A stretch of DNA of 52,042 nt, the filler included, from Bipalium vagum (Eukaryota): assembly GCA_037834085.1 (NCBI GenBank). It is 3 parts of 3 records of this genome, joined end to end, with 100 filler letters (N's around TTAATTAATTAA, not from the genome) between each part and the next. Parts side by side here need not be neighbours in the genome. Positions count along the whole stretch, not along the records: positions 1 to 17,288 come from JBBMKC010072559.1; 2 more parts are not named here. The stretch is one strand, 5' to 3'. Position numbers and translations under genes: made by a program. Position 1 is the first letter of the stretch; the number at the start of each line of letters is the position of its first letter. The notes under the pieces were generated by a model. It ran no database searches, was not told where the DNA came from, and saw nothing but the letters and a program-made list of their open reading frames with translations. Shown here piece after piece: positions 1-35,232 of the stretch.

Positions 1-739
1 TTCATTCAATTGCGTACACGTATAGGAACAAGTGAAGGGGTCAGTAACGTTTTGAGCTAAGGTTACGACAGGGTTCAAGTGAAATAATATCGTAACAAAA
101 AGAACTAAAATTCTAGTTTAATGATTCTATTATAAAAAGGTATGGATTCTAGATTCGAGAGCCTAAATCAAGTCATTTTGAATGGTGTCTTTATTATAAA
201 ATCTTTTTTTATAAAAATACAATCTTTTTGTTGAACGAGTTATAATGACTTTCAAAAATCTGAGTTATAATGTTGATGAGACAACTCCTTATTTCCTGTC
301 TTTCAATCTTTATATGGTCACTGTGTATTAAAGTTTTTCTCTTTCGATTACTGATACAAAACTCAATGATATTTCTTCAGCATTCCATACAAAATCTTGA
401 CCTTTGAGATTGATCTCAAAATTTCCCATATAATGTTAAAGAATCTAAAAGAACAATAAGACAAAACATACAATTATATACAGAGTCTTTCAAAATAAAT
501 CTACCATCTTTTTTTAGTTTTTTTTTAAATAAATCGATTTTTTTAAAAAAAACGATATTTGTTTATCTCAAGAAATAAAGCAGTTTTGAAAACAAATAAA
601 AAATCTAGAGTATATAAGACCGTGTATTTCTTGTAAAGCTGTATTTTAAGAAAGGTTAATCTATTGGACAAAATATTCGAGGATTTGGAGCAGCATAGAA
701 TATCAAAACACGATAGCACTCTCCTGATTGTCATACTGT

Positions 740-1400
740 GTGCTGATTACAAAATTTTAGAAATATGAAACAGTTTATGATCTACGAGAAGTGAGCGAAA
801 ACAAAATGCAGAAATGAGAAACATCTTAAAGTCAGTTGCAGAACAGACTTTGTCAAGTGTTATCTGAAGCTAACCAAATAACCCGAATTTGAGGTCGATG
901 AGATGTTCCTGAACAATACCTGGTGAAGCGATAGTCCAACAAAATAGTCACTGTTGGACTGAAGGCAAATGTGGTGTACCAGTAATTGAGACACCTTTGT
1001 TTTCTTCATCAATAACGGGATCTGTCGCATTCAATAATCTCTATGTTATTGAACCTTTTTTCTTTGACGAAAACGGAGATCATATAAATGGTGACAGATA
1101 TCCACAATGATTGGTGATCACCTACATACACAGTTTAACTCCTCCACTCAATGCTATTGCCACAAAAATCCTGCCTACCTCCAAGTTCGGTGTTATCTGA
1201 AATACTATCTGAGTAATTGGTTAATAACTCTCAGTGACATGACCAGCATGCAACTCTGATCTCATACCATGTAACTTCTGGTTGTGGAATTCTGTGAAGG
1301 AGGGCGTGTATGCTGATCTTTATCAGATGAGAGCTGATACAAAATAATTCCCTTGCAGAATTCCTAAACACATCGGATCTTTGACATAATTTGATACATA
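740..1400 (+). mobile_element. Decayed Tc1/mariner-superfamily transposase (rosa/DUF4817-like)
   Basis: Manual translation gives VIEPFF..DENG..INGDRY and (W)PACNSDLIPCNFWLWNSVKEGVY, matching the VIGPFFF and WPPRSPDLTPCDFFLWGYLK motifs; many stops and frameshifts. Confidence 0.7.
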
Positions 1401-1499
1401 TTTTCTGATCTTAGACTACATTCTCTTGTGCTTAAAATTATTTTTAAAAACTTATGTTTAATCCCTTGTGACCAATCACTTTAAAAATTGATCTGTGTT

Positions 1500-1740
1500 G
1501 CTTTTATTCAATAGAATTGAGAAATGAATTTCACCGATCTTTCATTTTTTCCCGTTAATTCTTGGGTTACCATTCCAAATTTACACAATCGTCTAAATAC
1601 TGTTAAATGATTTATTCCAAGAGTGTAATCCGTCAATCGCGTTTTTAGATGCTGATCATTTTCGATCAGCCTTAATAAATCAATGTTAGAAATGCTAATC
1701 TATCTCTCAGAATGTGGGCATCGGCAAGATCAATTTTTGT
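1500..1740 (-). mobile_element. Mariner transposase fragment
   Basis: Minus strand reads LGINHLTVFRRL and then WVTQEL, similar to the second HTH and WVPHEL motif. Confidence 0.5.
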
Positions 1741-1904
1741 TTAAAATTAAAATCTTACTGGTAAAACACAAACTTTACAATTATATAATGTACCAAATAA
1801 ATCAAATTATATATTTATTGCTTTTAGAGAAATAGAATTTAATTTTAATAAAAAAATAGTCTGTTTATTGAAAATAAAAAAGTTTAAGAGTTTAAGTTAA
1901 TAGT

Positions 1905-2205
1905 TCATACTATCCTTTAAATTCTATATAATTTGAAAAGGTAAAAATATTAGAACTTATTCAAATTATGTAAAAGCATATAAATATTTTAATAATTATC
2001 CACAACTAAGTTTATTGGAATATCAAAATTTATATTCATTTTTTGTTTTCATCAACCTGAAGATTTATGTTTAAATGGTGTTATAGTAACTTTACATATT
2101 TCAAAAGATTCAGATTTTAAATGAATAATAATGTTGTTTTGTTACAAGAACAACTTTGAGAAATAAAATTAGAGGTTGGTAAAATGTTTAATATTGAAAT
2201 AGAGA
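1905..2205 (+). pseudogene. Probable Polinton-like major capsid protein C-terminal remnant
   Basis: Frameshifted translation YPLNS..NIRTYSNYVKAYKYFNNYPQLSFI/EYQNLYSFFVF..QPEDLCLNGVIVTLHI..VLLQEQL*EIKLEVGK resembles the C-terminus of Polinton double-jelly-roll capsids; adjacent to a viral-type HNH gene. Confidence 0.45.
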
Positions 2206-2289
2206 AAAAACAGTATAAGAAAAAAATGAAGGGAAAATAGTGATTAATTATTATATATGTATAGTGATAATTATTTTTAAAAAATTATT

Positions 2290-2640
2290 AAAGATTATCA
2301 TTTCTTACTCATATTTCTTGAAATATATATTACCAATAATCTACTTTATCACTTTTTGATAAATTATTTGGACCAGTTTAAGGTCTTAAATTGCTCCAAT
2401 TATAACAACATTTTAAAAGAATTTTACTATCTAAATTAAATTTTGAAATTATTAAAACATGATCCATATGCCAGTATTTTCTTTGATTTTTCCAAGTTAT
2501 TTCATCATAAAATTGAAATTGAAAACAATTAATTAGAAAATCAAAACTATATCCAAATAATTCTTAAATTTTTATCTTCTCTTTGTTCCCTTATAGCTCC
2601 ATTTAAGGTATTATATAAATGTTGCTTACATTTTAACATT
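2290..2640 (-). pseudogene. HNH endonuclease of giant-virus/prasinovirus type, pseudogenised
   Basis: Minus strand: LFGYSFDFLINCFQFQFYDEITWKNQRKYWHMDHVLIISKFNLDSKILLKCCYNWSNLRP*TGPNNLSKSDK, matching the family pattern LGC..QF...MTWDNYG.WHIDH..P...F.L....CF.WTNLQPL...N.SK. Confidence 0.8.
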
Positions 2641-2669
2641 AGATTTTCTTGTTTTCTATTTCTATGAAA

Positions 2670-3460
2670 ATCATTTTATTTTATTTTCTGGAATATTTCT
2701 ATGATTTTTAATATGGATTAAATGATAACTTTTATAATTATTCATTTTAGAATAAAAATCTGTTATTTGTTTTATTTGAAAACATTTATGACATTCTTTT
2801 GTTTATATTTAAAAAATAGATTTATTATTTAAAGCTTTCTCTTCATAAATATCAAAGTTTTCATTCTCTATTTTTTAAATTAAAAAAAATAATTTGTCTT
2901 TTTGTAATTCACTCCGTTCAATTATATTCAATGTATGATTAACAAAGATGACTTTGATTAATTTTATTTAATTTTTAAATATAATACTGGTGTAAGACTG
3001 TTATAAGATAAAAATAAAAAAAATTAAATTTCTAATCTTTCCAGGGGAGAAAATTTTCAGTTTCTATATAATCATAAATATCTTGTAAGGGATTTATTGT
3101 TATATTTTCTAATTCAAGATATAAATTTTTAAAATACAAGATTTTGCTTAACTCAAAATATTTTTTTTATTTATTCCAATGATTTTTATAAATTATATTT
3201 ATTTTATATAAATTTATTTTCAGGAATATTTCTATGATTTTTAAAATGGGTTAGGTGATAAGATTTACAATTATTTATTTCTTCAATAAAAATCTGTAAT
3301 TAGTTTTAGTTCTTTAGTTTTGCCTAATATCGATATTGTATAGTTATTATATTTTCATTTTATAAATATTTAATTTATCTTTATACTTAACGTATGTTTA
3401 ACAAAGTATATTTTTATTAATTTCATCTAATTTATAAATATAATAATTGCGTGTTATGTA
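2670..3460 (-). repeat. Diverged tandem duplication (about 0.5 kb period) upstream of the HNH gene
   Basis: ggaatatttctatgattttta...aataaaaatctgt near 2690-2763 and again near 3223-3297; gtatg.ttaacaaag...aaatataata near 2933-2986 and 3392-3445. Confidence 0.75.
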
Positions 3461-3571
3461 ATTATGTTTTGTTTGAATAGATACTTTTTATAATTCTGCG
3501 TCTTTTCAATTTGAAGTAAAGAAGACCTTACTGGCGACCACACCGAAAATGTACATGTTATAACCAGAAGC

Positions 3572-3900
3572 ATGAGAAAAATTAGTCATGGACGCGTTAC
3601 CAAAAAAACACACAGGAAATTTTGGAATTTCAAATCAAACGATATAATGGCCGAAAGATGGTTGAAAGATATTGAGGAATGGCTCAGTATAAATGGTTTA
3701 TGCCTGGTCAACGTATTTAATTTGCTATTATTTAACGAAGCTTCAACCTTATGGAAGAGTTTCAAGACAGAAGCAACAACAAAAGAAGAAACAAAGTAGT
3801 GGTTTGCTGACACATTTATGGAGAAGAATCCAATAACCGATTTAATTTGCAAATTGACAGAATTCACACAAAACCTCACAGAACTGTCAAAGTCAGCTTC
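3572..3900 (+). mobile_element. LTR retrotransposon gag fragment
   Basis: ORF 3572-3799 contains AERWLKDIEEWLSING...LLFNEASTLWKSF, the W.....E / L...A..W pattern of Ty3/Gypsy-type gag. Confidence 0.5.
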
Positions 3901-4244
3901 TGTTAACAACTGAACCAATCTGGTGATGTATAATTTAAAATATTACAAATAATAAAATAATACAATGTCTCAACAACTTTACGGATTGTTTCATGTTAAC
4001 ATAAACTTCGTTGGACAAGATTCTAAGTTATGTGTTGGGCCTTTCTTGCGACAGTTGATTAATCTTTTTATCAAAAAATTTTTGGTTCAACCAAGACACT
4101 TCTAATTTGAGGGATTTTTAAAATATTGCGTTGGTCGTTGGTCTACCTGCTGAATCGCAATTTATTTCCCGTTTGACTCATATTCTTTGAGTTTTTATGG
4201 GTGAGTTAAATTTGTATCTCAAATCAAAGATTTTAGCTCGCTCA

Positions 4245-6182
4245 TTTTTTTATACACCTTAGCCAGTTTACACGCCGGTGGTGGCCTAGACCCCACATAC
4301 CCCGTATGAGCAGAACATACAACAAATAGTACACCAACACAACCCCACCCATCACCAAACATCAAACAATCAATCATACAATCAATAAATCCAACAGACA
4401 TTCCTAACAGAACAGGAAACGGAAGAAATAAAAGAAAATAACATAAAACTTACCTAACTTACCTGCCTCAGGGGTATACATTTTGACCAGGTCCCCTTTC
4501 CCTGGTCTTAAATGACCTCAGGTTCCTCCCTAGCCCAATCGCCGGACACCCGTACACTTTTCCCTCCCTGCTCGACAGAGATCCAACACCACTCGCCGAA
4601 CAGAGAATCGAGCCCTAAGGATGGCTGTTTCTTAGGGCGTCCGTACGGCCACACATTCAGTTCAATGTACGTCGACCAGATCCAGATACGGCATGCCTGA
4701 ATCGAATCATCGCAGCAGAGCCCTCCAAAGACCTCACAGTCATTACCTTCAGGTCCCCGAGCGTGAACCCGAGTTCCTTGAGTAATAACCATGTGCTATA
4801 ACACCAAGCTCCTCTCCAATTGAGTTTTATACCTGCTAAAAAGGGTACACTCGTCCCGCTGGGGTCTACATACCGATGTACCGCGCTTATATCATATTTA
4901 CGGACCTTGATCTTATTATCTTCCTCCAAGTTTACCAAACTTGAGTCGCTGACAATCTGGGCATCTAAAACGAGAGGAGGAACACCGTCCTTAAAGGCTA
5001 CGATATCAGGCTTTAGAAAACTGCTGTTATAGGGGATTTTCGGTTCGACCTCGACCCGATAGCCTAAGGCTTTAAGCTGAGCCACCACATAATCGACTAC
5101 ACGATTGCGCTTCCAGAGACGCAGGCCTTTTGCAGCACCACATTCCTGGAGTATATGGTTGAGGCTCTCGAGCTTGTCACCACAGCCTTTATCACAGAAT
5201 GGGCTCCCAGAGCCAGCTCTACCACTTAATGCTCTTGTCGCAGTATGAATCAGGTTACTCCGAATCCTGATCACGTAAATATAATCTTTCCCGCTCATAA
5301 GTTTGGTACCATTGCTGACCCTCGAATGCACCCCTGGGACTCGATCCATCTCCGCCAATCCTTTTCCGTCCAACAACATACACGCAGAAACGCGACAGTA
5401 GTCGTTCATCGATCCCGCTTCGTCAGAGCCCACCACCAACGGTTCGTTCCACAATGCGACCTCCTTACCAAACTTCAGACACTCACCTGCCGCACACACA
5501 GCCGGGTCAGTGCTCTCAGCCAACTTCGCCAGTCGCCGTGCCTTTCCGAAGTATACTGTAACCAAGAGTGACGGCAACCCAATACCACCATCCGACACTC
5601 TAGCATGGATATACGCTGATGTCGTATCACTTGGTAATTTCAGCCATTCACGAACTTTCTGCCGCATATACTTATCGAGCGTTCTCAACTCGGTTGAGGT
5701 TACCGATCCCAACACCCGAACATGTTGGACCTTAGGGATCAGGTAGTCGCGGAGGAGCCTTTGAAAGCCCACCTAAACCCCTCAAGATCAATCGACTAAA
5801 ATCCTCTTTGACTGAACCCTTCGCCGAGAATCGAATACCCAAATACTTATATTCATTGCCGGCTGAGTGACACGACCACGGGTAAGGTGGCCGCCTCACC
5901 AACAACCGGCTCGGAGTTCGGAGGATCCTAAATTCAACGGTAATTCTGAAGTTGTCTTAATCTGAATTTCTCCTCACTTTCTGTGCCATGCCATATGGAT
6001 AGCCAGACCCCCTCGGGCCTTTGCAGACATTCGGGTAGATCGTACACCGAACCTCAACTCCGTGGGACGCCTCAGACTCGTCTTCGTCTTGAACGCCCAT
6101 GAATGCAAGTGTGGAGACTACGACCAAAGCCACCAAAGCCATCTGTTACAATTCAAACAAACTCAATCCTTCCAATCAACCC
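4245..6182 (-). mobile_element. R2-clade non-LTR retrotransposon, internally deleted
   Basis: GC-rich island. N-terminal C2H2 finger (CTIYPNVCKGPRG/LAIHMAWH across a frameshift, about 5980-6050), RT motif 7 YKYLGIRF (about 5830-5855), thumb LRDYLIPK, CCHC knuckle CDKGC..ESLNHILQEC, REL nuclease EPKI..KPDIV..LDAQIV..KVRKY and LNWRGAW; 3' UTR ends in a short A run near 4245-4251. Confidence 0.9.
4657..5772 (-). CDS. C-terminal part of R2-like ORF (thumb, zinc knuckle, restriction-like endonuclease)
   Basis: 371-aa ORF in the track with CCHC and PD..D..K motifs; RT core absent, so probably non-functional. Confidence 0.85.
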   Translation of the reverse strand: MGFQRLLRDYLIPKVQHVRVLGSVTSTELRTLDKYMRQKVREWLKLPSDTTSAYIHARVSDGGIGLPSLLVTVYFGKARRLAKLAESTDPAVCAAGECLKFGKEVALWNEPLVVGSDEAGSMNDYCRVSACMLLDGKGLAEMDRVPGVHSRVSNGTKLMSGKDYIYVIRIRSNLIHTATRALSGRAGSGSPFCDKGCGDKLESLNHILQECGAAKGLRLWKRNRVVDYVVAQLKALGYRVEVEPKIPYNSSFLKPDIVAFKDGVPPLVLDAQIVSDSSLVNLEEDNKIKVRKYDISAVHRYVDPSGTSVPFLAGIKLNWRGAWCYSTWLLLKELGFTLGDLKVMTVRSLEGSAAMIRFRHAVSGSGRRTLN

Positions 6183-7179
6183 GGAGTAATGACATTATGC
6201 TGATAATTGTGATTCTTATGATATTTGACAATTATGTACTGATCTTTAATTGTGTAATATTCTCTGTAGCAGTGTTTAACATTATTTATGGCAGTGTATT
6301 GGCCTTTTATTGCTTATAATTTCAAAATATATGTATTGTAAAAATCGATTTTGACAGATTTATATAAAATAATAAATAATAAAACGATAATTAAATAATA
6401 AACAAAAGGAAGTAAAATATCATAATAAATAAGATAAGGTATAATAATAACATGTATAAATTATTATTAACATTAATATTAGTTGTGATTATATTTTTTA
6501 AAAGAAAATTTATAATAACGTAACATCAAGTTACCATTAATAGAAAACAGATCAGAAATTTTATATTAAAAAATGAAAAAATGGTAAAAATGGAAAAAAG
6601 AAGGATAACAGAATTATATTAAGAAAGAGAAAGTTACTAATTATGGAAGAGAAGGAAAAAAGAAGTGTATAAAAGCAAACAGAAATTATAAGAAGGGCAG
6701 AAAAAAAAATAATGACAGTTTATAAGAATCCAAAGCAGACGAATTCAAACGAAGTAGAACAGACCAAAAACTACAGAATACAACTATTCAATAATCTAAT
6801 CACAAACCCACAGATTGAACTCAGTCAGCTGTATAAACCTACAAACCAAACTCAGCCTAAAAGTGACTACCACTTATGACTCTAATACATTCCATTGTTA
6901 CGAAGGACTTGTAAACGCCAATTCGCCTACGGATATTGACTATTTAAAGGGTCGACAACAATCAAAAAATAGAAATAATAAAGAAAAAGTAAGAGCATAA
7001 AAATAGAGAAAAGAAAACCTCAAAGATCTTCAATCAGCGCTAAAGACAGGACGAATACGAAAACCCGACTAAACTAAAGGCAAGCAGAACATTGAATCAC
7101 TGAAGAGAAAAGGAACTTACGACGATCAAGTGGACCAATATATGACAATTGTTTTGTTGATAAAGTAAATTTCATAATT

Positions 7180-7426
7180 GATAACTTGTTACATCATTGT
7201 AACAAAGTTTTAGTATTCAATAAATTTTAACTAACGTTTTATATTATTACTATCTTAATTTTAAATTTTGTCGTCAATTTTAAGTATTTCAAACATTGAT
7301 TTTGGTCGTAACGATTAGAAAAGTTTTAGTGAAAAGAAATTGATTTAGTAATCTATTATTCGATTAAGTTATCCTTTATTGATACTTGTTACATTCTTGT
7401 AACAAAGTTTTATTATTATTAAATTT
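7180..7426. repeat. Pair of about 45-bp direct repeats 200 bp apart, each with a palindromic core
   Basis: acttgttacatcattgtaacaaagtttta at about 7184 and acttgttacattcttgtaacaaagtttta at about 7384; core ttgttaca-N4-tgtaacaa. Confidence 0.8.
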
Positions 7427-8134
7427 ACACCTATATCAATAATATAATATAAAACTAGCTCGGAACCCAAGGTTCACAAGACTAGTCTCAATTTTCAATA
7501 AATAATTATATTTCGTTCCTTTATTAAGCAAGCGTGTCTTGTTAGGCAAGACAAAGTTTGTCCTAACTAAGTAAATACTCAGGCCAGGACCTGAGGATTA
7601 TATAACTTTTTAAGTTCCCATTTCTTATTACTTTATTCTTTTTTCTTGTTTTTACTTCATACACTAAGTATGGTGGTGAAGTATATTTTTTCTTCATATA
7701 TTGATGACCTCTGATCCTAAGAGCGAGGAGATTTTTCTAAATAATAATTATAATTAATAAAATCATTTTAAACTCTTTAAATCAATCAGAACAGATATCA
7801 CGCAGTTTTAACTTTATTTTGAATAAAATAAAAGTATTAAAAAGTCAAGCGTTTTCTTAGTTATTTCAACCGAACACATAATAAGCAACCTTCACTCGTT
7901 AAGGCCTAAGCATCATAGTAAGCTCCACTTGTAACATCAATTTAACCCATCTTAGGATCTTAACACAAGCTAAATTAATAGTAGTGAACTTTTCATGAAT
8001 TGCACGAAGATGTGTACCCAGCCGAAACCGAGTATGTGTTTCAGGTGATTACAGGGTCGATGCCATCCCTGTAACCACCCTAGCCCTGGATCGGCTTTTA
8101 CGCGGCTATCAACCATCGTATCCTCCAACCCTAA

Positions 8135-8228: not shown

Positions 8229-8613
8229 AAAACTGACTATAAGTCAGTAGATGCATAATCTAAAATTAACTATATCACAATTTTACATGTTGTCAACCTA
8301 TATGTGACAATAGTTCAGCTAAAAATCTAAATATTCAAAGATTTATATACTTGTAAAGTTAAAGTTTTAAAGCTACTTAACTGATACCATATAATATTGC
8401 ATAACTTTTATATAACCAAGATTTTAAGGTTATTTTGTTTTATTAAGATATTTTGGTAAATTGAGAAAAAATAAGTTCTATTATTATTCATAATTTAACA
8501 ATATAAAAATACAATTTCTCACTTCATCTAATAAATCTAAATACCTAATATTTGTTTTACTACATAATAACTATTGAACTAAACATTCATAGTGCATATT
8601 TAAATTTCTCTAA

Positions 8614-11600
8614 ATGACTAATACGACTAACCTTTCTCGAGTTCCTTCTCGTAGATTGTCGTAATAAATGATTGTTCTATATTCGCATAAATTAGTTTTT
8701 TTTAATTTTCAGAACTAGTGGTATTAGTCTGTATGAAATTTTAGAAATAAACAAAACTGCAACAGAATCAGATATTAAAAAATCATACAGAAAAGTGATT
8801 GATAAATATTTATCTATCTTGAACCATAATATTTTCCAAAATTCTAGCTTGCTTTAAAATATCATCCTGATAAAAATGCCAATGAACCTGCGGCTACTGA
8901 AATGGTATTGTTTAATGTTTATATTACAACCACTTATTTTAGTGTTTAGTTCAGAAATATTAACAGAGCTTACTCAGTTTTGATCGATTCAAGAAAAAGA
9001 AATTTTTATGATAAATATGGATCACTGGGATTACAGTTTTTAAATCAAATGGGCGAAGATAATGCACAGTTCGTATTAAAATCCGCACATCCTTGTTTTA
9101 AGGTATTTATTGATTTTTTTATTGAAATACATCTGAAATCTTAAATTAGTAAAGGTATTTAACCGTCAGAAATAAAATTTTAATTTATTTTTAAGATTAT
9201 TATTCATTTATGTTTTGCTTATTCGTAAAAGTATATATCAGTCGTGTCCAGTTTACATTTATTGGTCGAATGTGGATAAATATCATTTATTTAAGAACAA
9301 TCAGATTCACATAAATTTAAATTATATGTAAGACTAATAAAATACACTTGACAAATAGAGCAATATCAGTATAGAATCAAACCTCACAGAAAACCGAAAA
9401 AACAAATAGATGTTAGCTAAAGCGTAAATATGACATGTGACACTGATTAATGTTAAAATTAATGGTATAATTCGGTCTGGGTTACTAAGTAGACATCGAA
9501 TTATGGATTGCAGTTGCTCGTTTGTCAACATCAAGAAAAAGCTCTTTGGTAGGAGAGCTCAGAAGTTTTTAAAATATTTCTGGAAAGTGAAATCTTCCTG
9601 CAGATCCATTAGGTCAAGCTGCACATCTTATTGGTACATCTTTATGTGAACTACAAAAGGATAAGTAAACCAATTAAGCTTTCTTTAGAAAACTCTGAAA
9701 ATTTTGTTTTTTTTTGAAATTTTTTTTTGAAAAAACGTATCTTTTTGGTGCCTGTTATGAAAGTCTATCAAATAGTTCTTGAGATACAAAAAACCAGGTT
9801 GTGTGAATATTTCTTTTTTAGGCCCAGTGAGCACCTAAAAATTAGTACTATATATTTTTGCCCGTTTACCGTACACTCTGGACATTTATAATTAGTCAAA
9901 ATTCAACACCTTTTTTCGGCTTTTCAAATTTGGTTTATGTTAAAAATAAAGTCTGAAATTCCATAAAAATTGATTTTCAGTTACTGAAATAATTTTTCAA
10001 GCAGGATTGTTCTTAATCAATTAATATCATAAATACATCCGTTGTCAATTTCTTTTTCTCAAATATTTTATTTTTCAATGACAACTGTTTAGTTTGTTTT
10101 GATAACAATTTTAATTTTCTCTATTTCGAATGAAATTTATTGTCTTTTTCAAATTTAAAGTTTTCTGTTATAAAGATAAAACTTTTGATAAACAGTCAGA
10201 AATATTCATAAAATAATTTATTTTGTTCTCTGCTTTATTTAATACGAATATCAGACATTTGAATATTATATTTTACCGATAATGTTGCGAAATAATAACT
10301 GGATCTTTTGTTTGAACACTTAAACCTATTCCACAACACGGTCATCACATTCGATTTTATTTAGAAAAATAATAATTATTGTTAGTATTTCGACTTTAAT
10401 TATTAAAATCATATGAAAGAATGACATGATAATTATTTCATGTGAACAGTGTTGAATTTCAGAATAATTATTATTAATTCTCTCAAAGTCTGATATTTGA
10501 AATTCTGGGTGTATTTCAAATAAAGAGAGAAGGTTCTAATTGAAATTTCCAAAAATACGAAGTTGAGAGTTTGTGAAATATTTAACTTTTTGTGAGATCA
10601 AAATAAAAATTCATTAAATTTCTTAACGCTGCGCAGTCTGGCATATTTAGATTTAATGAAATTTTGGTTTTTGAATTACCCAAAAATTATGTATAGAATA
10701 TTTCTCTTAGAAAATGAAAACCCATATTTTGAAGTCATAATTCAGTTCTAATACCATTGACTGAAATGATGTTATTTTGCATCAGTGCTATAAATTTCAT
10801 TGCTAAATTCGAAGTTTCACACGCTAAAACAATATTTTCATTTCATTTAGACAAGACAATTATTAATCTTGTTTAACAAGATTTATATTTATTATATTTT
10901 TAAATAAAAAAAACAGTTAAAAATTATCTAAGTATATATGTAATGCAATTTCCTAATACAAATTTAGCGTAAAAAGGCTAAAAGAATTAATGCAAAAAGT
11001 TTTGAAGATTTACGATCCAGAATTATTATGAATTCTACTAAAAATTCCGCGAATATTGCAAAGATTTTAGGTTTGAAATGAACAACGGTGTATTCAATTA
11101 TTAAGAAAAATCAGATCACTGATAGTAGTAAGTTAGAAACAAAAGGTTCTCATCGTCCAAAAGTTACAAGTGTGGAAGGGGAGGGGAGGTACAAATTCGA
11201 GAATAGGTTGTTGTCAATTGTGCTTTAACATTGGCAAAAATATCCAGAATGTATGAAAAAAAGGAGTTAAAATATCACCAACAACTGTGTATAGAAGATT
11301 AAAATGGTTTCATTATACCCTTAAAAGAATACACAGCATGCCTGAACTCCGAAATTTCCTCGTCACCATTGAAAAAAGAGTATTTTATTCAGCCTCATTT
11401 TTGGATGACTGTTTTTGCAAAGGATAAGATAATAGATGTTTCGATATGCTCAAGAGAGAGATGATCTTTGAAGGGTTCTCCGGCAGCATTAAATGTCCCA
11501 GGATTAAGATCAAGAAACATCTCTTGCGGAGCTATGAATGTGATGGACTATTATACTTTGGAAATAGAATCAAAGCCTATAATACAGAAAGTTATATTTC

Positions 11601-14600
11601 TTTTCTTGATAACCTCCATGTGAAGCTACAAATGTGTGGTGTTGTTAAGGGAGCTTTTGTCATGCATAATGTTCCATGACAATGTACTTCACTTGTTGAC
11701 GAAAAATACCAGAACTTGTGTATCGATGTGTCTATCTACCACCTTATTCTTCATTTTTAAACCAGATTAAGATGTGGAAAGGATTGGTTCAAAGATCAGC
11801 TCCTACAAATGAATCTGATTTAATAGAACTGGTTGAAGACATATCTCTTCTTATTACAAGCAGTTATTAGTTATGATTTTATAAACATGATAAAATATCT
11901 GTCAAGATGAGCAAGAAAAGAAGTGATCATGGACTAAAAACTTTTCGCAATAAATGTTGTTATTTGTCTAAATTAAATGATTAATTAACAAGATAATTTT
12001 ATATAATGTTATTTTTCGCTAAAACTGAAAAATTTTCTTTAAAAATAGTATATTTCATAAAAATGGGTAAAACCTCAAAAACACTAAAAAAAATTAGCTT
12101 TAATTTTAGGTTAATCAATTGAATCTTGGGACGGGTTTTATTGAAAGTGTTTTATTTCTTTTAAATCATATTATTGATAATTCTGAGTAATCTAAAAATT
12201 TCTCAAATAATTAATTGAATTAGTCAATTTATTTTAAATATTAATACAATAATAGCCTTGTTTAAATTGAAAATTGATCTTTTAGCATTAAATAATTAGA
12301 TATAATGATTGTCTAGAAACTTTTGATTGCTTTTTCATTGTTTAATAAAATTTGTTTACATTAAATTTTTTGTCTAATAAATTAGTATTGGCTCTCCAAT
12401 TTAGTTTTTAATATTTACAAGTATCGATTCAAGGAGATTTTATATATTTGAAATTGGCACGAGAAAATAACAGAGGTTCGTTGAATGTTTGACTTCTTCT
12501 CACAGTAATTGATACAATTTGAGAATAGTTGACATTTTTTATTACTGCATATAGTTTTCAATCAGTGAAATTTAATAAAATTTATTGTACCAAAAGACAT
12601 TTTATACGCGACTTGGAAATTCTTGGGTCCTTTGAATCGAATGTTTGAAAATAAGAAAAAGTTTCATTATTTACTTACCAAATTTATACTCAATTTTAAT
12701 ACATTAAAAATCGATTGATTTTTAATAAAAAATGTAAATTTAAAAAGTAAATAAAGATATCTATAGGAATTCTTCTAAAATATTCAAGGTTGACCTCGTC
12801 CAGAGGAAATAAAACAATAAAGGTTAAAATATTAGATTTCTCATAATTGATTTTTTATGGTTATTATTGATTTCATGTCTGATATTATCGATTGTATAAA
12901 AGATCTATTTTATTTCTTTAAAAATATTTTTACACTCTTCCAATCATTTGATTCCACAATAGTAATTAATTTAATTTAAACTTAGAATCATTTATTATTA
13001 GATTTTTATTATTAATTTTAAACAGGTTTTACTTATTGCAACCTGTATCCTAACTGGGTGTTGCTATTGCTGCTTTTGTTATTGTTTCTGTTGTTACAAC
13101 TTCTGTTGTGGAAAATTTGCTCCAAAAGAACAGACAGAGTTTGAAGAGCCATTAACCGAAAAAGTTGATTTTGTTAGTTTTTTATTTAAATTAATTGACC
13201 AGAAATATTTTTTGCAACCAAATAGATAAGAAAGTTTTACATTTTAAAAAAATATACGGGTATTCTGAAAGTATTTAGATATAGTAATTGATTTTTCAAT
13301 ACTTCATTAAAATAGTAAAAATATTTTATTTTTCAAAATGTATTCTTCAGAGATCAATGATCTTCTGTTATCTTTTTCCAATCTATATCACACCATCTAT
13401 GTACATAAAAAACTTGACAAGTAATTTTGAAATAGAAAGCTGTATCTTTTTAGGAAGTTGATTATATCATATGTTGATTAAAAGGAGCTAAATATAAAAT
13501 TTATGCTAGATAACAGAATAAATCTTAATGGTTTTTTTCTCTTTTGATTCTTCATTATTCTTTTGAATAAATAATGTTTTTTACGATTGATTGAGATTTG
13601 TTAAAAGTTCTCTAGGACTGAATTTGGACTGAAATCAGCATTTGTTTTTCTTTCCTTCGGAATAATAAGTAAGAAAGATTCAATTTGAAGTTGATCATTG
13701 ATCAGATAAAATATGTTACCTCTCAATTTTAAAATCAAAATCACAAAATCACTCCCATTCCTTTCGCGGATATTTCTATATTCTTTTATTTCAGTATGGC
13801 TTATTTGAAACAGTTCTTTAATTTTGATTTTATATTTGTTAAAATGATCAATAAATTCAATTTTTAAAATGTTTTTATATATATTTTTCTGAAAAAACAA
13901 TTATTTCGTGACACTACAATTACCAAGCACATTTTAATGAATTTTCGCATTTCTTAATACTTTTATAGAATTACTCACTATAATAATTTCTAACTGTATC
14001 CTAGTTGGGATACGTTACATTTTGTTGTTAATAATTTTTGGTTTTATTCATTTACATAAGATATTTAACAATGTCGAACTTCAGATTTTCAATGAATTAA
14101 CGGTTTTTTGTGAATTTTTATGAAATTATTGATTATCCAAGAAGTTTTATTCTTTAAAAAAGGGAAGTTTACAGTGACTTTTATCACTACAAATTTTTCA
14201 ATATGAATATTAAATTTCGTTAATTCAATTGATTTTTTATTTTCCAATAACAACTAATTTCAGGAAATTTTATTTTTAGAATGAGAGTGTGGAAGAGAAC
14301 CAGAAATTCAAAATTTATAAACTGTCGGTTAAATTCCAAGTTTAATCAACCATAAATCGATAATTGTTGAAATTTTAAAATACTACTTTAAAAAGTGACT
14401 TCACAATTTTTTTTGCAAAACCCCCTACCATCACCATACAATATTGTTAGATTAAATTTTCGTAGTTCTATTTCTTTAATCAATTGTTCTGTTGATCCTT
14501 GAGTACTCTGTGAGGGGCTAATGGTTGTGGGCCAAGTCTGTTTAAAATATCTTTTCAAATTGTAGCACCAATTTAGTAAAATGGTCATATTCTTAAAGTA

Positions 14601-16095: not shown

Positions 16096-17288
16096 GCCAA
16101 TAGAAGAAAATATTAAAGTCTTAATACGAATAAGACCTAATAACAATATTGCTGGAAAAGATTACTTGTCAAGATATAAAGACTCGAATTCAATAATAAT
16201 TCCATCAGAGTTTGAGCCTAAAAGATTTACATTTGACAAAGTGGCAAATGAAAATACAAGCCAAGTTGAATACTTAATTATTTATGAATTCTTAATATAA
16301 TCTAGGAAGAAATATTTCAAAATTTTAGATCTCTTTTTGAATCGTTTTTTTCTGGATATAATTGTACTATATTTGCCTAGTAATTTTTAATATTTTGTTA
16401 AACTTTTATTTCTTGTTTATAGTGGTCAAACAGGTAGTGGGAAAACTTACACCATGACTGGTGATTCATGCTATAACTGTCTTGGTCAAAATCCGGGGTT
16501 GGTTCCTCAAGGGCTTGAATATATTTTTGATAAAATAAATGACCATTCAATTACGGTAATAATTTGAGTATATTAAAAGTATACTATTATTTATTATTTA
16601 ATTGAGTATGTAAGCCCAAAGCTTACCAAGTGAATTTAATAATTTACTCGTTAGTAAAGATTTATCAGTATTTTTACTAAATTTAATATTAAAAATATTT
16701 TAAAAATTAAATATATTTAATTTTTATTTGCAGGATCAAGTGGAATATTTAGTAAAATGTTCATTTGTAGAAATATATAACGAGCAGTTGTTCGATCTGC
16801 TTGATCCAAAGGGTCAAAAAGTGCAGCTAAAAGATAACTTTTTGCAGGGAGTTTATGTTGACAATTTAACGGAAAAGATTCTGAACAATACGAGTGAGGC
16901 TCTTGAGGTATATTTCTTTGTAAAGTTCTGAGTTTATATTTTTGATTAAATTTTTAGATTTTACAGAAAGGCCTAGAGAGTCGGCATGTTGGAAGTACTG
17001 CGATGAACCGTGAGAGTTCCCGAAGTCACGCAGTATTTTCCATTATTCTTGAATCCAGCGTAAAAGAAGATGGCTTAGAAAACATTCGAAAAAGTGTTCT
17101 CCATTTGGTAGATTTAGCTGGCAGCGAGAGACAGAAAGACACCAAATCGGACGGAGTTAGGCTGAAGGTCATTAAGGATAAAATCTGAAATCGTAATTAA
17201 CTTTTGCAATATTGATTATAGGAAGCCGGTTCCATTAATAAATCTCTTCACGTTCTTGGTCAAGTGATAAGTGCTCATGTGGACATTG
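16096..17288 (+). CDS. KIF15: Kinesin-12/KIF15-like motor domain, partial
   Basis: Exons 16096-16264, 16306-16379, 16423-16555, 16734-16907, 16958-17167, 17222-17288. Motifs [71 protein letters not shown]. First exon not located; truncated by the gap. Confidence 0.88.
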
Positions 17289-17388
17289 NNNNNNNNNNNN
17301 NNNNNNNNNNNNNNNNNNNNNNNNNNNNNNNNTTAATTAATTAANNNNNNNNNNNNNNNNNNNNNNNNNNNNNNNNNNNNNNNNNNNN
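17289..17388. other. Assembly spacer N44-TTAATTAATTAA-N44
   Basis: 100-bp gap containing a six-frame-stop linker. Confidence 0.95.
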
Positions 17389-17750: not shown

Positions 17751-20700
17751 GTGCACTGCATGAGAAATATGGATAGTTTCTGTCACATCTCTCAACATCT
17801 TTGTCAATTCTGTGCATGTTATCTGCCATGCTCAATAACTGATCATCCTGAAAAAAAATCCCAAAATAAATAATTTTATTTGGTTAAGTTTGGTATCCAA
17901 ACCTGGAATATCATATCTTGATTGGTCGATGATCCTGCATCTATACTATTATCAGAGGAGTAAAACCCTTTTGAAGGCCTGAGATCTGAAAGATTTGATT
18001 TATATATTTCAAAAACACAAAAATTCAGACCACAGTTTGAAACATTGATAATTTTATCTTTTTGGGGACTAGAGTTTTTGGATTTTTCATTTGATATATT
18101 ATTGAAATTGATTTCACTCTGACAATTAAACAAAGAATTTGGTTTCGCTTGTGAATTTGAAACCAGTTGTGGCTGGCATTCACTTTCTCGTTGACTAATG
18201 ATAACTTCTATTGCTTTCCACTGACTGAGGGTTTTTTCGTAATTCAATTCCGTAACCAGGTTTATCTCGGAATTATCAGTTGAACACCATTCGTAATGAC
18301 CCAGCATTCGAGGCCAAACCTAGCATTGCAACTTATACATTCATCGACGAAGACAGGTAATCAATATAAAAACCTCGTTTCTCAAAGATTCCGCACATCC
18401 TCCAAAATATATATACCTGTATAATTCAGTTTCTGATAAATCCTGATAAGAATTAAAAAATAATCAATATTTCTCAACAAAAAGAAAATTATTTCATTTG
18501 GAAAACTGAGCTATCCAGAAAAGCTTATATATTTAAGTTAAGTTATAGAACAGCTTCCGTCATTAGCTTAGGTGAAATCACATTTTTCAACGAAAATGGA
18601 GTCAAGTTCTTATGAACGATTAACATATAATGTTATATATCAATTATCATTTAACGGGAGATATATAGGAGCAGCCCATTACATTTGTAATATCAATGAT
18701 AAAAGTATTAAAAACTATCGTTACATTTTATTTTCATAATGGAAATTAATATGCTTTCCACTTATTCTTTAAAGATATTACAAAGAAATTTCCAAATGGA
18801 ATAAAAAATGTAATTACAAATATTGATGAAATATATCAGTTTTAGCTTTAAAAATATTAGAATTTTAGATTCATTAACAATGGTGGATTCTTCAATATCA
18901 ATAACTGAAACAATAAGAAAAATATTGACAGATACATCTAAACATGAAACATTTAATGAATATAATCTCATACCAAGAAAGTAGATATATTCAATGAAAA
19001 AACGTAAATGAATGAATTATTATTTTAAAAAAGATATTCCTCTGAAAATAATTTTTTATTCCGTTTTGAAAAAACCACAATTTCAGATGAAGACTAAAAA
19101 TATTTTTTAAAGATTATAAGAACTTTAAGAATCTAAAAGAATATATTACTTTACAATATACTTTACTAATACTTTACACTATTGGAATTAGATATTTTAA
19201 TTTTAGCTGATTTTATGGAAAATATAAGAAAAAAATGTTTAGAGTATGATTATGATATAGATTTGTTATCGTGCTCCAGGAATAAGTTTGAATTGTTAGT
19301 AAAGGAAAATTAAAATATTATAAAGAAAAAACATGATTATTTATTATTAATATAAACAGGAATAAGAGTAAGAATATCTAGTATTCAGAGATATAGAAAA
19401 GTAAAATTAAAACTATTATAAATAATAATAATAATTATTATTAACCCGAGAAAATGAGATCATGTTATAAATGATTTTAACAGATATCTTTAATATTATG
19501 ATGCAAATTATATTCAAGTTGCATAACAATGCATTACCAACAGGAGAAATGAAAAAAATTTAATTTATGAAAGAACATCGATATCATCATCTAATAAAGA
19601 AGGATTTATATATGTACTTGATTTAGAATATACTTTTGAATTACATGATAAAACTAAATATTTTTCATTCTATTCAGTAAAAGAGAGTATAATATTAAAT
19701 TATCAAATTATAAATAATACTTTATACATCTCAGAAAAATTAATATTAACAAGATTTGAAAAATATAATTATATAATATAAGGTTCAATGTTAGGTTGGT
19801 ATTTAGATCGGGGAATGGTAATAAAGAAGATTCACAAAAAATAGTTTTTAAAAAAAACAACTTTGGAAAAATCAAACATAGAATTTAATATAAAAAAAGA
19901 AGCTAAAAGAAATAAAGATGGATTTGGTGATTTCTTTTTACAAATTAAAAAATAATTCAATTTATGAAAAACTTTTAGAAAAAGACAAATTATAGAAATA
20001 GTTAAATTGAATATTTATAAAAAGAAAATATAATAACTATCATATAGATATTAATTTTTTAATTTAAAACTGGTGAATGAAATCTTCAATATTTATAAAC
20101 CGGAAGCCATAAATAATAAGTTTACTTTTCAAATAAGAACATAAGATAGTCATAAATGTTTTCAAATAAAATCAATTTCAGATTTTTATTCAAAAATAAA
20201 TAATGGTGAATCTTATCACTTAACCTGTATTAAAAATCATAGAAATATTTTTGAAAATAACTTTATAAATAATCATGATAATTGTTAAAAATGAGTGAAA
20301 TAGGTAAAAAAATATGTTGAGTAAAACAAAATTTTTTTAAAAAAATATTTATATCCGGAATCAGAAATGTAAATTTTTAATTCGCATTAATTAACATATA
20401 TGATTGAAATTAAAAAACTTCCATATAAAAATAAAAATTATTATCACTCTCATATTACGACAAAAAAATAAGTAGCTAACCTTGTTATTTTTATATCTAT
20501 TCCAAATTTCGACAGTCAATCCTTCGCTGGCATCACAAGGAACATCACATTGTACTGATCCAGGGAGAACAAGGGAGATACATTTCGTTCTGACAGTTTT
20601 TAAATTTCGATAATAATGATACCCTATTAGAAACAAGTGATTTCATTAAAAAAATTGATTTTAAGTCACTTACATCCATAAAAGGCCCTTGACAAAATCT

Positions 20701-34036: not shown

Positions 34037-35232
34037 AGATATTAAATGCATTTGTTATAATCTGCGCTGTTCAATTTATATATTATATTTTTTATTATTG
34101 TTAATTAAGTATAAGCATCTATAAATCTTATTATTTTAATTGGTTAATAAATATAATAATTTAGTATCAGATTTTTCCAGATTTATTAAATATTTTTTCA
34201 AACAAATTTCTGAACATAAAATTGAATACAAAACTATTCCAAAAGAAATCTTATTATAAAATTATTACGAGATTATTTTTCCAGGAAAACATATATTAAT
34301 TAAAAGATTTTGATATTTTTCCCGATTTTTTAAAATTATATTCCAAATATATATATATATATATATAATAATTGAGATGAAGAAACTGTATTAGAGACAT
34401 TAACTTGGCAGTTACAGATGGAAGATAAAATGTTGAGATTCCGATTTAAAATAAAATAAAAGCTGGAATAAATTAATTTTATTAATAGATCAGATTACAA
34501 CACGGAATTAATAGGCAAGCGATAAATCAGAAATAAAAATGGTAATGTAAATTGTATGCTTAATTTGATCAATTGTTGTATGGATCAAAGTCAGTGGGCA
34601 TCAGCAGATCAGAATGGATCGTTTATCATGACATTAATAGAAGGAAATACGGATGTCGGTACTTATATACTTTACATTCTTTCCAAATCAAGTGTTTTTT
34701 AAAGGGTTCTTATTTATGTTTTTGTGGAATTGTTGAATTATTTTTTATACTTATCTAACGACCTGTAGATATTTTTTAATAAATCACGACGTTTTACCTG
34801 CGGGTCATCGAGATAAATCCGGAAATTTTTAATCTTAATTAATTAAAAGAAGAAAAAAGACAAAACTAATAACTATATTAAAATAAAAATTGGTACACAA
34901 CTAAATTATTTTTATTATTCGATGTGATCACCATTATTTACTGTTCTGTATATACTGATTTTTTTGAACCTGATCTTAGAATATCTTTGTTAAATCCTAA
35001 ATTTCAAATAACTTTTATAAAGTTCATCATTTGAAATCATTTCAATATTCGTATTTTTTAAAATAAGAAAGGTTAAATTAATACAGTCAAACTCGATTAA
35101 TATCATTGCCTCCGTTCCAGGAAAAATGATGATAATAAACAGAACGTGATTATAGCCGAAAAGTTGTTTAACTTCACGATGAATGATATTAACCAATGAC
35201 ATAATCACAAAATAGCGTTATAAAATACGATA

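Follow-up and report, generated by a model that had tools for sequence, protein, structure and literature searches.

Polintons (Mavericks) are thought to copy themselves with a protein-primed DNA polymerase B (pPolB), to insert with an integrase and to pack into jelly-roll capsids. The animal Polintons and adintoviruses (PMC8502044) have in common with the element described here a pPolB with an endonuclease-VII-like N-terminal motif, many decayed copies and, likely, a PF21738-type capsid. A free-standing HNH gene is, in contrast, a feature of the present element; in the main text and supplement of the adintovirus paper, as far as these were covered, the words 'HNH' and 'endonuclease' occur 0 times (PMC8502044). 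HNH homing genes are described in parts of the literature on cryptophyte and other Polinton-like viruses (PMC12220804; PMC5499653; PMC11161782; 10.64898/2026.07.28.741278), and the introduction of another paper names HNH among the giant-virus genes present in some polintons (PMC12721341). The sections consulted on protist Polinton-like viruses (PMC12220804, PMC5499653, PMC12721341, bioRxiv 10.64898/2026.07.28.741278) read their patchy accessory HNH genes as homing genes, a likeness to our case, but these genes, compared by description, are mostly helicase-fused or of the I-HmuI/HNH_3 type. Similarly, an HNH nuclease in an animal Polinton appears in the material covered on nematode and oomycete Polintons (bioRxiv 10.1101/2023.08.22.554363), where it is a PacI-like domain inserted in pPolB2, whereas here it is a separate gene of another family. 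Intron HNH genes are found in Bodo saltans virus, according to the part of the source covered (PMC5871332). The giant-virus intron HNH homing endonucleases (our loci L106-L108 and L190-L197; PMC5871332, same part) share with the gene described here the nuclease family with its WHxDH...NLxP...N..K core, the N-terminal CxxC ribbons and the adjacency to a capsid gene. Here, however, the gene stands antisense behind a capsid-like gene, has no group I intron match and is borne by a Polinton-like carrier. Mirusvirus shintrons, in the sections consulted (PMC12768974), also tie HNH nucleases to capsid genes of nuclear viruses; theirs sit inside spliceosomal introns, whereas here the capsid-like match is complete before the nuclease starts, and the nuclease may lie in a GT-AG intron of another, plus-strand host gene. 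Endonuclease genes near replicases are noted in one preprint (10.64898/2026.10.13.758929, part covered), a figure legend carries a mention (PMC10120064, part covered), and the covered part of PMC3671162 contains no 'HNH'. We found no report of a free-standing HNH of this type in an animal Polinton in the open-access literature; bioRxiv supplements may list some.

The window, which is the whole stretch of 52,042 nucleotides of Bipalium vagum DNA that was analyzed (assembly GCA_037834085.1; three parts of three records joined end to end), consists of AT-rich eukaryotic DNA in which introns are short and transposon debris is abundant. An AT-rich block lacking any ORF had been noted in it, and this was borne out by a composition count (GC 0.176-0.182 versus 0.34 on either side) and by an ORF scan, which gave no stop-to-stop frame of 80 amino acids. 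From one public run, 2,279 contigs fell on positions 1-3170, with 143 of them at an identity of at least 99%, 1,745 below 95% and 936 below 90%. The summed word depth in one public run, which gives no copy number, was 600-34,000 over 1697-3170 as compared to 22-217 over 107-1696. The block is plainly a large, diverged, many-copy interspersed repeat family, and gene finders and Pfam overlook this very abundant family. Terminal repeats were sought in 1-8000 and no convincing inverted repeat was found there, both element pieces being cut off; element ends were not found. The features assigned to the element are listed in Table 1.

Table 1. Features of the element in the window, with the evidence for each
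Feature	Position	Strand	Evidence
Likely C-terminal third of a Polinton-type (PF21738-like) double-jelly-roll major capsid gene	1766..2238	+	Frameshift-aware profile match
HNH/endonuclease-VII-like nuclease domain and preceding helix	2303..2675	-	Profile score 117.5; similarity searches
Second N-terminal repeat unit of the nuclease gene	2680..2990	-	Repeat of about 80% identity; zinc-ribbon profile
First, more decayed N-terminal repeat unit of the nuclease gene	3106..3445	-	Repeat of about 80% identity; zinc-ribbon remnant
Decayed Polinton-type protein-primed DNA polymerase B	18648..19980	+	tblastn E 1.6e-10; frameshift-aware score
Second copy of the N-terminal repeat of the nuclease gene	20000..20367	+	80-88% identity to 2681-2887, 3106-3311 and 3325-3380; E down to 4e-50

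The HNH nuclease foreseen on the minus strand was recovered by several comparisons. Its motifs lie in one frame at 2339-2563, which contains 1 stop in 75 codons whereas 8.2 would be expected at such a composition. This frame matched the PHROG endonuclease VII (E 2e-4), gave 46 matches among phage records (best 41% identity, E 7e-8) and matched 7,839 representative proteins at E<=0.001 (best E 3.7e-18, 46% identity), the top matches among which bear no useful names. The invariant WHxDH, NLxP, N and K of the family are all retained. A profile made from the 50 best matches extended the nuclease to the limits given in Table 1; the match contains a single frameshift, near 2561, as well as three stops, and stops fall in the 3′ part of the domain. 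Upstream, the zinc-ribbon profile revealed a zinc-ribbon-like CxxC start at 2752-2802 (23.8 bits, 0 of 300 shuffles) and a remnant in the first repeat unit (13.9 bits, 1 of 300 shuffles). Since the nuclease domain is preceded by these two repeat units, the gene spanned from about 3445 to about 2290 and is now broken. Judged by its sequence, the decayed gene is that of a real HNH/endonuclease-VII-like nuclease, a label that comes from PHROG endonuclease VII and the source names, and it has the build of the homing endonucleases, in which zinc ribbons, predicted to bind DNA, are followed by the HNH domain.

Other searches were negative or nearly so. The nuclease matched no Pfam or NCBIfam family in the frames and parts scanned, and PDB sequence searches gave no match. 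The decayed nuclease and polymerase, used as queries in word-indexed protein searches, returned 0 of 24 and 0 of 950 candidates, a result of little weight. When IMG/VR was scanned directly with the decayed proteins, one scan yielded one weak locus and the other zero, and two motif scans of IMG/VR gave no match. The differences between the two copies of the nuclease gene in the window amounted to 9, 6 and 6 of 40 by codon position, a small sample; as the third position shows no bias, there is no sign of selection between the two copies, which is the pattern that neutral decay would produce.

The relatives of the nuclease were then considered. The family is wide, with a search estimate of about 8,500 stretches in IMG/VR; a giant-virus label was carried by four of the 80 loci kept. 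The best two of these 80 are L106, at a split giant-virus RNA polymerase gene, and L107, with half of a giant-virus capsid gene on each side, and in L108 such nuclease genes are located inside an Rfam group I intron. A search with a subfamily motif, chosen by the analyst from the top matches, placed 7 of 12 loci (several of them near-duplicates) at giant-virus capsid genes; 6 of these are flanked on either side by capsid pieces. Furthermore, N-terminal CxxC ribbons, several in each protein, are common to the query and the nucleases of the giant-virus capsid genes. A quick tree of 121 rows and 114 columns drew on some 90 cores of the 80 IMG/VR loci plus a random 30 of 117 further cores, and on none of the 7,839 representative-protein matches. 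In it the query, on a long branch, fell together with L106, L107 and two rows labelled as giant viruses (SH-aLRT 81). The description of the nuclease as 'giant-virus-type' thus holds for the nearest placed relatives, whereas most of the family comes from phages and the tree supports the grouping weakly. From these sequence relationships it is fairly likely that the donor was a giant virus. Because the closest placed relatives lie inside giant-virus genes, the gene is likely a selfish nuclease picked up by the element. In L108 (6832-10624), L107 and L190-L197, giant-virus capsid genes are interrupted by HNH-bearing inserts, one or two in number, with an Rfam group I intron match for L108 only.

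No Rfam group I intron was detected in 1500-3170, where decay could hide an intron core, and the nuclease gene is antisense to the capsid-like gene and behind it, and does not split it. These two observations favor a free-standing homing gene. None of the 102 related Polinton-like loci, of which many are short, carried the nuclease, a distribution in keeping with a patchy mobile gene. Polinton genes were found at 0 of 92 nuclease loci, so that there is no second example of the pairing. Whether homing was the job of the nuclease we put at an even chance. The main rival, a domesticated accessory gene of the same Polinton remnant that served to process or package the genome or to attack host DNA, would equally be free-standing, antisense to the capsid-like gene and present in many copies, and packaging or restriction has been proposed for the HNH gene of a cryptophyte Polinton-like virus (PMC12220804, in the part covered). 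Such a role is nonetheless unlikely, given that the closest placed relatives are intron-borne homing nucleases and that the absence from the related loci is the patchiness of a mobile gene.

On the plus strand, a capsid-like C-terminus had been proposed from position 1905. A frameshift-aware match lends it support, with a start near 1766 instead, but single frames do not: those of 1904-2238 gave no match in Pfam, PHROGs or NCBIfam, a profile of 63 PF21738-type capsids matched none of the single frames, and a PDB sequence search with one capsid-like frame gave no match. The stretch, which is truncated on its 5′ side and interrupted by several frameshifts and stops, aligns at 1766-2103 with positions 268-394 of the 428 of the model. 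The PF21738-type reference family has a double-jelly-roll fold, and it occurs together with the same type of pPolB on contigs in 18 loci. One contig (L017, 1058-2932) was also seen to combine a Sputnik-type virophage capsid with a Polinton-type pPolB.

The frameshift-aware results vary with the penalties. Under strict penalties, the score of the full capsid model was reached by 1-6 of 100 shuffles in eight of nine settings and by 0 in one. The C-terminal model was reached in four settings by 0 or 1 of 500 shuffles and by 0 of 120 real AT-rich windows (23.9 bits at 0 of 500). The locus came first among 146 real AT-rich windows, with 27.6 as compared to 25.5 for the runner-up, and the Polinton capsid was the best of 11 viral gene models on this strand (z 4.5), followed by the NCLDV capsid (z 3.3, 1 of 60 shuffles); the ATPase gave z 2.9 and the decoys z 2.5-3.3. 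A penton reading was rejected since its scores were at chance (z -0.4 to 0.1). Five motifs, picked after the alignment had been inspected, scored best in the right order and with near-right spacing (1793, 1890, 2009, 2050 and 2136). In an unbiased tiling, the 10-mers were significant (10 of 16, 0 of 300 shuffles), whereas the 12- and 14-mers were not, and the last 40 positions of the model were not significant on their own. References of the insect type gave 17.9 bits (2 of 100 shuffles) versus 26.8 bits (0 of 100) for the others.

Taken as sequence, the plus-strand stretch is likely a Polinton-type capsid gene, on statistics that are modest. As these statistics are weak or mixed, one could read it as another accessory gene, or as AT-rich noise, next to a nuclease that still belongs to a Polinton. 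We regard this as highly improbable, because the five conserved motifs, ordered and spaced correctly, extend from the left edge of the block to a stop at the end of the model, and because the penton models stay at chance. The capsid-like frame runs from about 1766, the left edge of the repeat, to a stop near 2240, and the nuclease match ends near 2303, about 60 bases off. The two genes hence converge tail to tail, in the arrangement first reported. The runner-up window of the capsid profile corresponds to 34376-34624; adjoining it, 34070-34161 shows a weak 72% match to 3354-3448 (E 1e-4), which is either a third decayed piece or chance.

The second locus carries a pPolB piece that begins with the endonuclease-VII-like N-terminal motif and reaches as far as polymerase motif B, where it is truncated. 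Its frameshift-aware score was 100, against a maximum of 17 in 30 shuffles, with 10 frameshifts and 14 stops. The pPolB frames were without a Pfam match, and one polymerase frame gave no usable Atlas match. Only 20 bases separate the end of pPolB at 19980 from the start of the nuclease-gene homology at 20000, on the same strand, and both pieces have a GC content of about 17-20% as compared to 35% next door. This junction lies about 16.5 kb from the first nuclease locus. The Polinton-like origin first suggested for the block is supported because a pPolB fragment is joined to this second nuclease piece and because diverged copies are many. Read most simply, the joined piece is a copy of a single element shortened by an internal deletion; in that element polymerase and nuclease would be codirectional and the capsid opposite. 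Polymerase, nuclease and capsid would with high probability once have stood in one element, the link to pPolB being one junction. In the window, where only element fragments are present, tblastn with 3,397 reference frames gave no integrase, ATPase, protease or penton, and the same search gave no pPolB at the first locus. The pPolB-nuclease piece (18600-20480) may fill one large intron of a minus-strand host gene, a GT following the open stretch at 20480.

These data also bear on whether the block could instead stem from an endogenous giant virus (NCLDV) or from a mobile element that carried only the nuclease, pPolB then being its neighbor by chance or nested insertion. The relatives of the nuclease are giant-virus and phage genes, the NCLDV capsid model ranks second on the plus strand, and the first locus has no other Polinton gene, as this explanation would have it. 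It is nevertheless improbable: the Polinton-type capsid model scores above the NCLDV one and over a longer collinear span, the junction with pPolB is tight and on one strand, and the search for a group I intron around the nuclease gave no match.

We therefore consider it probable that the block is an inactivated fragment, present in many copies, of a likely Polinton (Maverick) with a captured HNH homing gene placed tail to tail to a likely capsid gene. The Polinton would have captured its HNH nuclease gene, likely from the pool of giant-virus homing endonucleases, and the gene, free-standing, would then have propagated by homing. While the element was active, DNA binding would have fallen to the zinc-ribbon repeats and cleavage to the HNH domain, the target being a site in related elements devoid of the nuclease, most plausibly near the neighboring capsid gene, towards its end. 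Repair of the cut could then copy the nuclease and its flanks in, or the cut could remove a competitor. The spread of the element itself, by pPolB self-synthesis and integrase insertion, is assumed from known Polinton biology. A bolder version, in which the Polinton was armed with a giant-virus capsid-intron nuclease as a weapon that cuts the capsid gene of co-infecting giant viruses, and then expanded to hundreds of germline copies as a virophage-like defence in an animal, seems to us quite remote.

If the preferred reading of a captured homing gene is right, gene flow between giant viruses and Polintons would extend to a likely animal germline, and a giant virus and a Polinton would once have met in the same cells. 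An accessory HNH nuclease in an animal Polinton lineage, as originally predicted, is in keeping with a nuclease beside a likely capsid and pPolB, but HNH cargo of Polinton-like elements is already in print. What is likely new is the free-standing HNH gene of this family in a likely animal Polinton, HNH cargo being known in protist Polinton-like elements and in nematode pPolB. As this copy is dead and such cargo is known from protists, the value of the locus is evolutionary rather than mechanistic, and the activity of the nuclease is putative.

Several other sequences were observed in the window. Positions 1-106, with a summed depth of 108,822 in the same public run, are the end of another abundant repeat. 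The flanks of the block at 3515-3940 (+) and 900-1200 (+) appeared by eye as retrotransposon Gag-like and DDE-transposase-like remnants, without a Pfam match. A GC-rich frame of 371 amino acids at 4657-5772 (-), also without a Pfam match, presumably corresponds to the 3′ end of an R2-like non-LTR retrotransposon, which it resembles. Remnants of a Mariner-type HTH (PF17906; 31352-31876, -) and of a retrotransposon RNase H (PF17917; 43716-44084, -) are located further downstream. Two host genes were recognized on the plus strand, and they suggest an animal host, DNAJC5 being an animal gene: KIF15-like kinesin exons with short introns at 16300-17290 (E 1e-8), and exons of DNAJC5 (cysteine string protein) at 8600-13100 (E 3e-9), with the J domain near 8600-9110, the cysteine string near 13050 and a Tc1/IS630-like remnant between the two.
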